A DNA stretch of 32,000 nucleotides from Promethearchaeia archaeon (GTDB lineage: Archaea > Asgardarchaeota > Lokiarchaeia > Sigyniarchaeales > SOKP01). Each line of letters opens with the position of its first letter. Positions within the stretch are counted from its first letter, which is position 1. Made by a program: the position numbers and the translations under genes. The DNA lies in NCBI GenBank assembly GCA_046497275.1, contig JAWOFX010000019.1, positions 69,552 to 101,551 on the forward strand, in the 5' to 3' direction. The notes under the pieces are model-generated. The model did not search any database, was not told the DNA's origin, and saw nothing but the letters and a program-made list of their open reading frames with translations. This document shows, one piece after another, positions 11,608 to 14,702 of this stretch.

Positions 11608-13935
11608 TTAATCCGTTTTTTCCTTCTTATATTTAAATCGACTAATTTTGTATATTTCTTGAGCAATTTTCTTTCCAATATTCTCAATTTTCATCAAATC
11701 TCCAATATCTGCGTTAAAAATAGTTTGCAATGTTTCCATTTTGCTTAATAAATTTTTTGCTCTTAATTTGTTCACTCCAGGTATCCCCGCGATAACATAT
11801 TCTAACAAATATGATATATCGAGAGGGGCTTTCTCGAATCTAAGTTTTTCAGTTGATTTTTCATTTGTTTGTTCTTTTTTTGTTATATGATATAAGAAAT
11901 TAACTGTTTCCTCAACATTTTTAGTTCTATAGAGAGTTATTCCTAAATTTAGAATAATGGATGAGATCGCACCATATATTGCATTCTCGGTGATATTAGT
12001 ATTTTCGAAAGGATCTCCTTCTAATATTAAAATAGGACGTTCGAAATTATTATTCAAATCAATTAATTCCTTAAATAACCTGCCATCTTTAATAGAATCA
12101 TTAAAATCTTGACCACTTTTCCTTTCAATACCCACACGATTTGATATGATATAATCAGCCACATCAAGTTGTTCTAATTCCAAATTCACTCCCATTAATG
12201 AGAGCTTCCTAACGATGGGTGATGCAGTCTCTCTATTATCACAAACGACTTTAAATTTTTCAGCTCCTTCAATTTTTTCGTTTTGTGTAGGATCTCCCTT
12301 GCCTTTATTTTTATCTTCTGAAATATAACTCATTAGACTTTTCTGCTCATTTGAATCTGATGTTTGCTGGAAATTTTTTATCTTTTTTAAATTTCTCCGC
12401 ATATTTGATTCTTTAGCCTTCTCCGCCCAATAGTATCCTTCATCTCGAGTCCCTTCCGCCATCAAAATAAATACTTTCCCTTCCTTTTTTCGCCCGGTTC
12501 TTCCCCTTCTTTGAATCGATCTAATCGCACTCGGGACCACATCATAAAAGACTACTAAATCACACTCAGCAATGTCTAATCCCTCTTCCGCAACACTGGT
12601 ACCAATTAAAGTATTATAAATACCATTCTTAAACTCTTCCAACAGTTCAATTTGACGTTTCTGAGTTAATCCTTTGTCTGATCCTTTATTTGCTTGTCCA
12701 ACAAACTTATGAGCTTTTACAATTGAATCTTCATCGAAGTAATCTACGATATTATTAACGGAGTCACGGTAATGGCAAAAAACTAAAATACGAGATAATG
12801 AATTCTTAGTAAGCTGATCATGCAAGAGAGTTTTTAATTTTTCCATTTTAGGATGAACTATTCCTTTTGCTTGAATTTGATTTGTAAGATTAATCACTCG
12901 TTTAAAATCATTATCACTAAATAATTCCTTTAAAGATTTATTTGCCTTATTTTGTTTAATTTTTTCCTTATTTTTATCTATGTATTCCTTAAGTGCATTA
13001 ATGCCTTGGGTTTCTATAAGTTCAGACATATGGGATATCCTGATCGCATTTGCCTGCAGTTTTTTCGCATAAAATAATGCAAATTTCTCATCTTCCGACT
13101 TGGCTGAGGATAGTTTTCTATTAATCTTTTTATTTAGCTTTAAGAGATCCTTTCTTGTGACTTTACTTGTATCATATGAATCTAGTAAATCACCTTTTTT
13201 TAGATGTTTATAAATCTTTTTTAATTTCTCGTTTAGAATATTTAGGATTTCTGAGAATTCATTTGGCAATTTTACTTTTATCCATTCATTATCAACCTTA
13301 TGAATATAGGGCTTTACATCTGCATCATTTTCTGTCCGTATCTCAATATGGTCAATAAATAAATTCTGTTTGATCTCTTTTATTTTTTCCTCCTCAGAGC
13401 CTGGACTGGCAGTTAGCCCTAAAATATGTGCATTCTGCGAACTTTCCACATATTTTTTTGCTATAAAACAATACGCATAATCCCCCACTGCCCTATGGCA
13501 TTCATCAAAAATAATTAATGAAACCTCTTCTAAGGAATATTGATTTGAGATAATATCATTTTGAAGTACTTGTGGCGTCATAAACGCAACCTTCAGATCG
13601 CTCCATAATTCTTTCCTCTCCTCTGGGGGCGTGGTTCCAGTTATGGGCTTTAATGAATCTTGCTCTAAAACTGTTAAATCAAGAAAGGAATGATAATGTT
13701 GATTTACTAATGGTTTTGTAGGAGCAAGAAAGATAACCTTGGAATCCGGGATTTCAGTTAATCTATGTACTGCCAGCATTAATCCGATTATTGTTTTTCC
13801 CAATCCTGTGGGGATCACTACTAAAGAATTTTGGTTGAGACAACTGATAAAAATATTTTCTTGATAGGATCTTCTAAGAATTAAATCTTTTTGAATAAGG
13901 GGATGAGAGATATACTCTTCTTTTTCTGAAACCAT
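11608..13935 (-). CDS. hef: Hef: FANCM-like SF2 helicase fused to ERCC4/XPF nuclease and HhH2
   Basis: PTGLGKT (motif I), DECH (II), TASP (III), QRRGRTGR (VI); nuclease DNRE...DY...ERKS..DF; C-terminal IPGVNKLRA and IENIGKKIA HhH motifs. Confidence 0.95.
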   Translation of the reverse strand: MVSEKEEYISHPLIQKDLILRRSYQENIFISCLNQNSLVVIPTGLGKTIIGLMLAVHRLTEIPDSKVIFLAPTKPLVNQHYHSFLDLTVLEQDSLKPITGTTPPEERKELWSDLKVAFMTPQVLQNDIISNQYSLEEVSLIIFDECHRAVGDYAYCFIAKKYVESSQNAHILGLTASPGSEEEKIKEIKQNLFIDHIEIRTENDADVKPYIHKVDNEWIKVKLPNEFSEILNILNEKLKKIYKHLKKGDLLDSYDTSKVTRKDLLKLNKKINRKLSSAKSEDEKFALFYAKKLQANAIRISHMSELIETQGINALKEYIDKNKEKIKQNKANKSLKELFSDNDFKRVINLTNQIQAKGIVHPKMEKLKTLLHDQLTKNSLSRILVFCHYRDSVNNIVDYFDEDSIVKAHKFVGQANKGSDKGLTQKRQIELLEEFKNGIYNTLIGTSVAEEGLDIAECDLVVFYDVVPSAIRSIQRRGRTGRKKEGKVFILMAEGTRDEGYYWAEKAKESNMRRNLKKIKNFQQTSDSNEQKSLMSYISEDKNKGKGDPTQNEKIEGAEKFKVVCDNRETASPIVRKLSLMGVNLELEQLDVADYIISNRVGIERKSGQDFNDSIKDGRLFKELIDLNNNFERPILILEGDPFENTNITENAIYGAISSIILNLGITLYRTKNVEETVNFLYHITKKEQTNEKSTEKLRFEKAPLDISYLLEYVIAGIPGVNKLRAKNLLSKMETLQTIFNADIGDLMKIENIGKKIAQEIYKISRFKYKKEKTD

Positions 13936-14127
13936 ATTAACCAGAATGATTTAAATACTATTTTGAATATTCAATGATACTGAATGCGTCCAGTTATATA
14001 AAATGATAGAGTCCACTGATTAACTTAAATACATTTAATATCTTTTTAATAAAATTAGATAAGACGATATTTTACCTTGAAAAATAAGAAAATTTAATTG
14101 AGAGTAGAAATTAATTTTTATAAAAAT

Positions 14128-14233
14128 GCGCGGATGGTTTAGCCTGGTATAACGACACGCTCACACCGTGTAGGTTCGAGGGTTCAAAACGATTAAATCG
14201 TTTAGATACTGCGTGGAATTCCCTCTCCGCGCA
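14128..14233 (+). tRNA. tRNA-Val: tRNA-Val(CAC) with 31-nt T-loop intron, CCA not encoded
   Basis: Acceptor stem GCGCGGA/TCCGCGC plus discriminator A; D-arm GTTTAGCCTGGTATAAC; anticodon stem ACACG/CGTGT with loop CT-CAC-AC (anticodon 14162-14164); 6-nt variable region; T-stem GAGGG/CCCTC; T-loop TTCAAA^T interrupted by the intron. Confidence 0.93.
14189..14219 (+). other. Non-canonical tRNA intron at position 59/60 with bulge-helix-bulge
   Basis: Outer helix is the T-stem; central 4-bp helix TTCA(14183-86)/TGGA(14214-17); 3-nt bulges AA^A(14187-89) and AT^T(14218-20); inner pairs CG/CG. Cutting after the 2nd nt of each bulge restores an exact 7-nt T-loop TTCAAAT. Confidence 0.88.
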
Positions 14234-14396
14234 TTCTTTCTTATACGCTCAAGATAAAAATCATTCTATAAAATATGTTCATTCTGATTTCATCCTTCAA
14301 TATCTTTTTAACATATAAATTCGCAATAAAAATCATAAAAATTAAATGAAATGCTATATTTAAAGAAATAATTACCTTTTTCTGAGTTAATTCACC

Positions 14397-14702
14397 TTGT
14401 CCAGCTTTATAGAATCTCGCGAGTTACGTAAGAAATACAAAGAAGTAAAAGAATATGTTAAGATTGGGCCGATATTCCTAACTAGATATGAAAAAGCGAG
14501 AATAGTTGGTGCTCGAGCATTACAGATTAGCTTTGGCGCTCCTATTTTGGTTGAAAAATCTACGGACTTAATTGACCCGATAAAAATCGCCCAAGTAGAG
14601 CTTAAATCTAGAATTCTTCCATTAACAATAAGAAGAGAGCACCCTAGCTCAAATGAAATTCAAGATATCCCAATCAATAAACTTATTCTAAAGAAAGATT
14701 AA
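14397..14702 (+). CDS. rpoK: DNA-directed RNA polymerase subunit K (Rpo6/RPB6)
   Basis: [22 protein letters not shown] and [13 protein letters not shown] are the Rpo6/RPB6 signature; TTG start, position uncertain. Confidence 0.95.

Follow-up and report, generated by a model that had tools for sequence, protein, structure and literature searches.

The window, that is the whole stretch of 32,000 nucleotides that was analysed, carries at positions 14128-14233 a valine tRNA gene of an Asgard archaeon (SOKP01) whose T-loop is interrupted by a bulge-helix-bulge (BHB) intron. The gene sits in an intergenic gap between a minus-strand open reading frame that ends at 13935 and a plus-strand open reading frame that begins at 14397. 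Its parts, and the sequence directly following it, are listed below.

14128..14188, plus strand: 5' exon, comprising the acceptor 5' strand, D arm, anticodon arm, 6-nt variable loop, T-stem 5' strand and T-loop nucleotides 54-59 (ARAGORN on the spliced sequence)
14162-14164, plus strand: anticodon CAC, within the 5' exon
14189..14219, plus strand: BHB intron of 31 nt at tRNA position 59/60 (cloverleaf restored on removal, hBHBh' geometry, recovered in an independent genome scan)
14220..14233, plus strand: 3' exon, comprising T-loop nucleotide 60, the T-stem 3' strand, the acceptor 3' strand and discriminator A73, with no encoded CCA
14234..14242, plus strand: T-rich trailer TTCTTTCTT directly 3' of the discriminator, a candidate archaeal terminator as judged by sequence only

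When 14189-14219 was deleted in silico, ARAGORN called a tRNA-Val(CAC) of 75 nt on the plus strand of the locus, with a 7-bp acceptor stem, D and anticodon stems, a 5-bp T stem, the 7-nt T-loop TTCAAAT and discriminator A. On the unspliced DNA the same program found no tRNA anywhere in the window. The predicted exon junction is …GGGTTCAAA joined to TCCCTCTCC…, i.e. GGGTTCAAA/TCCCTC. The initial annotation had proposed that the cloverleaf closes only after removal of 14189-14219; sequence inspection and ARAGORN agreed with it on this point as well as on the coordinates, the junction and the CAC anticodon.

In Rfam searches at the gathering score the window gave no match, and in E-value mode a single truncated tRNA match of 17.3 bits (14128-14182) was obtained. 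As ARAGORN and Rfam both miss the gene, the genome would by their output seem to be devoid of tRNA-Val(CAC), and herein lies the value of the locus for annotation. The earlier statement that such genes are easily overlooked applies to these two programs but may not extend to tRNAscan-SE, by which Asgard T-arm introns are mostly detected according to a 2026 preprint (10.64898/2026.10.13.758758).

The complete hBHBh' motif claimed at the two junctions was checked base by base and was found as described, with the following elements.

14178..14182, plus strand, paired with 14221-14225: outer helix h, 5 bp, identical to the T stem GAGGG/CCCTC (base-by-base geometry)
14183..14186, plus strand, paired with 14214-14217: central helix H, 4 bp including one G.U, formed by TTCA (T54-A57) and intron TGGA (geometry)
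14187..14189, plus strand: 5' bulge AAA, 3 nt (geometry), with a predicted cut at 14188/14189
14190..14191, plus strand, paired with 14212-14213: inner helix h', CG/CG, 2 bp (geometry), which is the minimum for a canonical motif
14218..14220, plus strand: 3' bulge ATT, 3 nt (geometry), with a predicted cut at 14219/14220

The insert shows the following features of hBHBh' introns: (i) bulges of 3 nt; (ii) four of four pairs in H; (iii) no fewer than 2 bp in either of the flanking helices h and h'; (iv) a cloverleaf restored by excision. Archaeal splicing endonuclease (EndA) cuts after the second base of each 3-nt bulge, and cuts at these bonds would release 14189-14219, an intron of 31 nt. The layout mirrors that of canonical introns at 37/38, in that next to a stem four bases of the loop pair with the intron's 3' end, and the cut follows the sixth base of the loop. 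Since the sixth base of the T-loop precedes the cut, the intron position is 59/60.

Because the splice register is fixed by the tRNA, the rate at which such a motif arises by chance could be measured directly. With the register held, the strict motif (H 4/4, h' of at least 2 bp) was formed by 0.38% of 200,000 shuffled introns and by 0.29% of all 31-mers of the window when placed at the insert site. In an independent scan of the whole 3.85-Mb genome the order of search was reversed: strict BHB motifs were collected first (456,292 candidates), and ARAGORN was then applied to the spliced products. This motif-first scan recovered the exact intron at G000:C156:83740-83770, which corresponds to window positions 14189-14219.

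For the naked precursor a fold more stable than the BHB is predicted, owing to a competing hairpin inside the intron. The conformer that combines cloverleaf and BHB has a free energy of -23.3 kcal/mol versus -32.9 kcal/mol for the minimum free energy (MFE) structure, a gap of 9.6 kcal/mol. When the T-arm piece was folded alone, the MFE structure kept h and h' and left the strands of H unpaired. BHB motifs are recognized by a protein and commonly fail to appear in unconstrained nearest-neighbour folding; the non-optimal fold is a caveat but no disproof. If it is nevertheless taken to mean that the likeness to a BHB is fortuitous or arose in assembly, and that the insert is no splicing substrate, three observations together come near to refuting this reading, whose probability we regard as negligible: the chance rate of 0.3-0.4%, the recurrence of the sequence, without a single difference, in contigs from four RNA libraries, and the homologous inserts of the same geometry in other species.

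One salt-lake study comprises four metatranscriptome runs whose RNA-library contigs span positions 14122-14383, including the intron, and confirm the sequence of the locus in independent data. Contig X1 extends from 14142 to 14321 and contig X4 from 14122 to 14251; beyond the T-rich trailer, the contigs continue to 14321 and further. Positions 13962-14121 are covered by no RNA contig, and we draw no inference from this gap. All contigs are unspliced and contain no joints; as contigs of this kind cannot reveal a mature tRNA of 75 nt, its start or its end, they carry no weight for or against splicing. They could be derived from precursor or from contaminating DNA. Splicing at 14189-14219, for which we rely on sequence and geometry rather than on spliced RNA, is very probable.

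Contig X4 (record 7, 14122-14251) carries remnants of Illumina adaptors at both sides. Its first 11 bases repeat its own 3' end (14241-14251) in reverse complement and are followed by AA and then by 14122 onward; this arrangement may be a library or assembly artefact. Visual inspection of the AT-rich upstream DNA gave several candidates for a TATA box, for example at about 14090-14099, from which no claim is drawn.

The gene is the only one for tRNA-Val(CAC) in a genome with an estimated completeness of 98.9%. Queries of 106 nt and 61 nt matched only themselves, and a direct search of the genome for Val(CAC)-type anticodon arms found one in a tRNA context, that of the 14128-14233 gene. A second, intron-less Val(CAC) gene, named in the initial annotation as the finding that would speak against a functional locus, was not detected in this genome. 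The locus might still be a decaying or unexpressed pseudogene that was disabled by the insertion, with GUG codons being read by tRNA-Val(UAC). The gene for the latter is present (G000:C156:4408-4513), and tRNA-Val(UAC) could in principle read GUG by wobble. Also in line with decay is the lack of a spliced product among the RNA contigs (which cannot reveal the 75-nt mature tRNA), as is the atypical variable loop of 6 nt (AGGTTC, 14172-14177). A loop of this length is unusual in class I tRNAs, and most orthologues with an uninterrupted variable region have 5 nt; the extra base is compensated by the D loop, which has one base fewer than that of most relatives, and the sequence of the variable loop is corroborated by the RNA-library contigs. 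We consider a pseudogene very unlikely, given that (i) all stems are intact; (ii) the exons are 92% identical to those of a congener while the insert has diverged; (iii) a strict BHB is formed by fewer than 0.4% of inserts by chance; (iv) the architecture is kept across many species and genera; (v) no other Val(CAC) gene exists in the genome. Moreover, the Val(UAC) gene is itself interrupted at 59/60, so that a means of removing such introns is needed in this organism regardless.

Matches to the gene were found in 35 of 61 genomes of the same family and typically covered query positions 1-61, i.e. exactly the 5' exon, which is 81-98% identical to its orthologues in 34 of the 60 other family genomes. 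When these loci were mapped against the mature sequence, the Val(CAC) orthologues proved to contain zero to three intervening sequences each, at 37/38, near 29/30, in the variable region or in the T-loop. The 37 genes that were parsed comprise the family loci and those added by a class-level search. A T-loop insert of 29-36 nt is present in 23 of them and absent from 14, counts that are descriptive and do not represent independent trials because the sampled genomes are kin. The class-level search contributed hardly any loci from beyond the family, as 126 of the 150 sampled genomes belong to it. When 185,579 species genomes were scanned with an exact pattern for Val(CAC) bearing a T-loop insert, four loci were obtained, each of them within the sampled family or next to it; the pattern is too strict for this number to serve as a measure of distribution.

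Most T-loop inserts among the 23 orthologues form H with 3-4 of 4 pairs and h with 4-5 pairs, in one of two registers. The 59/60 register, in which the whole T stem serves as h, is found in the 14128-14233 gene and in L004, L007, L008, L014, L015 and L024. Thirteen orthologues (L016, L018, L021-L023, L027, L029, L041-L044, L046 and L047) have their best BHB at 58/59, and three (L005, L036 and L038) fit both registers poorly. A BHB at 58/59 requires both that G53 be moved from the T stem to the central helix and that the GGGGG/CCCCC stem shift by one position (G52.U60). Cleavage at 58/59 in the gene of the window would leave the T-loop TTCAATT instead of TTCAAAT, and the product obtained after removal of 14188-14218 is also accepted by ARAGORN as a 75-nt tRNA-Val(CAC). 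Together with the 13 orthologues this makes the adjacent register worth considering, but the 58/59 class goes along with slippable GGGGG/CCCCC T stems, whereas the stem here is GAGGG/CCCTC. The 59/60 register scores H 4/4, h 5 and h' 2, and no comparable alternative leaves a viable tRNA. A real intron cut at 58/59 is accordingly judged highly improbable, and the assignment as a non-canonical T-loop intron at 59/60, made in the initial annotation, was upheld.

Within the genus of the window the intron is present in L004 and L024 and absent from L010 and L012; the two intron-less congeners score 63-64 bits on the Rfam tRNA model. Compared with L004, 69 of 75 exon positions are identical (92%) versus 22 of 31 in the intron (71%), where several indels occur and the length and the 3' GRAAT end are retained. 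The fourth pair of helix H, A57-T in the gene studied here, is G57-C in L014 and L015, which is one double-sided compensatory change. The other differences in helix H are single-sided and affect the intron strand (G.U/G-C and U.G/U-A), as is expected with an exon strand that is the conserved T-loop. Judged from these alignments, the intron sequence diverges among homologues while the BHB geometry is kept.

In the Val(CAC) genes L003-L047, nearly all non-canonical introns (T-loop, variable region, near 29/30) measure 29-32 nt, and the canonical introns at 37/38 measure 18-20 nt. The coexistence of 59/60, 58/59 and absent states, taken together with the uniform size of about 30 nt, might reflect an active, size-constrained gain, loss or sliding of introns in tRNA and protein-coding genes. 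We regard this as a speculative and on balance unlikely reading; if it is true, a single genus would suffice to date the process and to dissect it. The differences in register and in presence or absence are the most interesting loose thread of this work and, among congeners, offer a small and defined case for intron gain and loss.

With regard to the processing enzymes, two tRNA_int_endo genes were identified by PF01974 matches at G000:C46 (102.9 bits) and G000:C168 (70.3 bits). The α subunit (L001:1168-1773, 201 aa) can be aligned over its full length, with no gap, to the catalytic subunit 3P1Z_B of Aeropyrum pernix (E 3e-38) and retains the Tyr/His/Lys triad. In its Crenarchaea-specific loop the lysine equivalent to Lys44 of the A. 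pernix protein (APE) is kept, with 'SKPR' aligned to APE 'EKPR'. Lys44 was identified as the RNA recognition site behind the broad specificity of this EndA, for which the biochemical proof was obtained with a D-loop intron (Hirata 2011, PMC3241643). The β subunit (L002:1216-1818, 200 aa) has no residue aligned to the catalytic His, as expected for a structural subunit. The pair resembles the (αβ)2 EndA of A. pernix (PDB 3P1Z, 3AJV; PMC3241643) in the α subunit over its entire length, loop and lysine included, and in the possession of a second, His-less subunit. It differs in that β is nearest to the EndA of M. jannaschii (most similar) and M. kandleri and not to crenarchaeal β chains. An Asgard (αβ)2 EndA with an L1 insert, along with disrupted Asgard tRNA genes, was described by Kaneta 2018 (PMC5829648), and the gene pair of the present genome agrees with that type. 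These comparisons support a crenarchaeal-type two-subunit EndA, predicted to assemble as (αβ)2 and to have a broad specificity, in keeping with the endonuclease type anticipated at the outset. In addition, the genome encodes two full-length paralogues of the ligase RtcB (G000:C100:5154-6461, minus strand, and G000:C145:7959-9266, plus strand; 570.7 and 552.7 bits to PF01139).

The following sequence of events is proposed with high confidence as a whole: (i) the single functional tRNA-Val(CAC) gene would be transcribed as a precursor with a core of 106 nt; (ii) the precursor would adopt the BHB by means of the T stem, the pairing of T54-A57 with the 3' end of the insert, and the short inner helix; (iii) the (αβ)2 endonuclease would make a single cut in either 3-nt bulge, at 14188/14189 and at 14219/14220; (iv) RtcB would join the exons to a tRNA of 75 nt with the T-loop TTCAAAT; (v) the 31-nt intron would be released, probably as a circle. 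The observed foundations of this scheme are the sequence, the geometry of the motif and its rarity by chance, the single copy, the arrangement kept in relatives and the presence of the enzyme genes.

Position 59/60 is explicitly listed among the non-canonical intron sites of archaea (Yoshihisa 2014, PMC4090602). A study of 2024 (PMC11291895) reported Asgard genomes in which 92-95% of the tRNA genes are interrupted, in many cases at non-canonical sites; the supplementary table of that study gives intron coordinates with no tRNA positions. The 2026 preprint (10.64898/2026.10.13.758758) names 37/38 and the T-arm as the places where most called introns of Asgard tRNAs accumulate, and states that the T-arm inserts most often form a canonical BHB. 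With 59/60 listed in PMC4090602, an Asgard EndA described in PMC5829648 and T-arm introns reported in the preprint, the novelty for Asgard archaea that the initial annotation had implied had to be abandoned. The question of Asgard EndA specificity, which the locus was thought to open, is already framed in the literature. As the sole gene for its isoacceptor, with a single intron and a strict motif, the locus would provide a convenient test RNA for a first T-loop assay of an Asgard EndA.

The intron was further compared with the crenarchaeal set (SPLITS/SPLITSdb catalogue; Marck and Grosjean 2003; Sugahara 2007, 2008; reviewed in PMC4090602). Like the non-canonical introns of Thermoproteales and other Crenarchaeota, it has an hBHBh' motif of which half is exon and is located at position 59/60 (PMC4090602), and it likewise belongs to a setting of multi-intron genes and of presence/absence differences among relatives. 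Unlike that set, it occurs in an Asgard host with an AT-rich genome that is presumably no thermophile, and the non-canonical introns observed here differ strikingly little in length (about 30 nt). With the Asgard tRNA introns of the 2026 preprint it shares the superphylum, the phenomenon, and a pattern of repeated gain and of presence or absence among close relatives. The focal families in the accessible parts of that preprint and of Kaneta 2018 are Freyrarchaeaceae, Jordiarchaeaceae and Atabeyarchaeaceae, whereas the family studied here apparently lies outside them; these same parts contain no description of the Val(CAC) gene at 14128-14233 or of its split between 58/59 and 59/60.

T-loop introns are routine in the SOKP01 genome. 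ARAGORN alone reported about 26 tRNAs, several of which are dubious. A T-arm scan with a GC filter, followed by ARAGORN after splicing, revealed at least six further tRNA genes with T-loop introns of about 30 nt, along with several multi-intron candidates.

G000:C25:39448-39549: Ala-GGC, T-loop intron at 58/59 (ARAGORN after splicing)
G000:C32:2611-2714: Lys-TTT, T-loop intron at 58/59 (ARAGORN after splicing)
G000:C32:1156-1258, minus strand: Thr-CGT, T-loop intron at 58/59 (ARAGORN after splicing)
G000:C85:8694-8819: Arg-CCT, T-loop intron and a further insert (ARAGORN after splicing)
G000:C156:4408-4513: Val-TAC, T-loop intron at 59/60 (ARAGORN after splicing)
G000:C172:75565-75699: two-intron tRNA gene with a T-loop intron (ARAGORN after splicing)
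C34:27775-27920 (minus strand), C33:4579-4725, C158:20657-20790 (minus strand), C122:1367-1529 (minus strand) and C34:37189-37330: multi-intron candidates

A scan of the T-arm without the GC filter had given 507 hits, mostly spurious in this AT-rich genome, and was superseded by the filtered scan.

Since T-loop introns are common in this genome and Asgard cases are already catalogued, the locus is a solid but unremarkable case: it was identified correctly and belongs to an intron class that is already known. Taken alone it matters little, being one more non-canonical BHB intron in a lineage rich in them, in a genome whose type of endonuclease was already predicted to handle such introns.

Alignment of the Val(CAC) intron with nine other T-loop introns of the genome gave a best score of 3 versus a 99th percentile of 6 for the null, and thus no sign that it might be a copy of one of them. 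Among the 58/59 introns of Ala-GGC, Thr-CGT, Lys-TTT, C34:27775-27920 (minus strand) and C122:1367-1529 (minus strand), a weak similarity was observed, with scores of 7-8 versus a shuffled-null 99th percentile of 6, which hints at a shared origin or at a shared constraint beyond the BHB.
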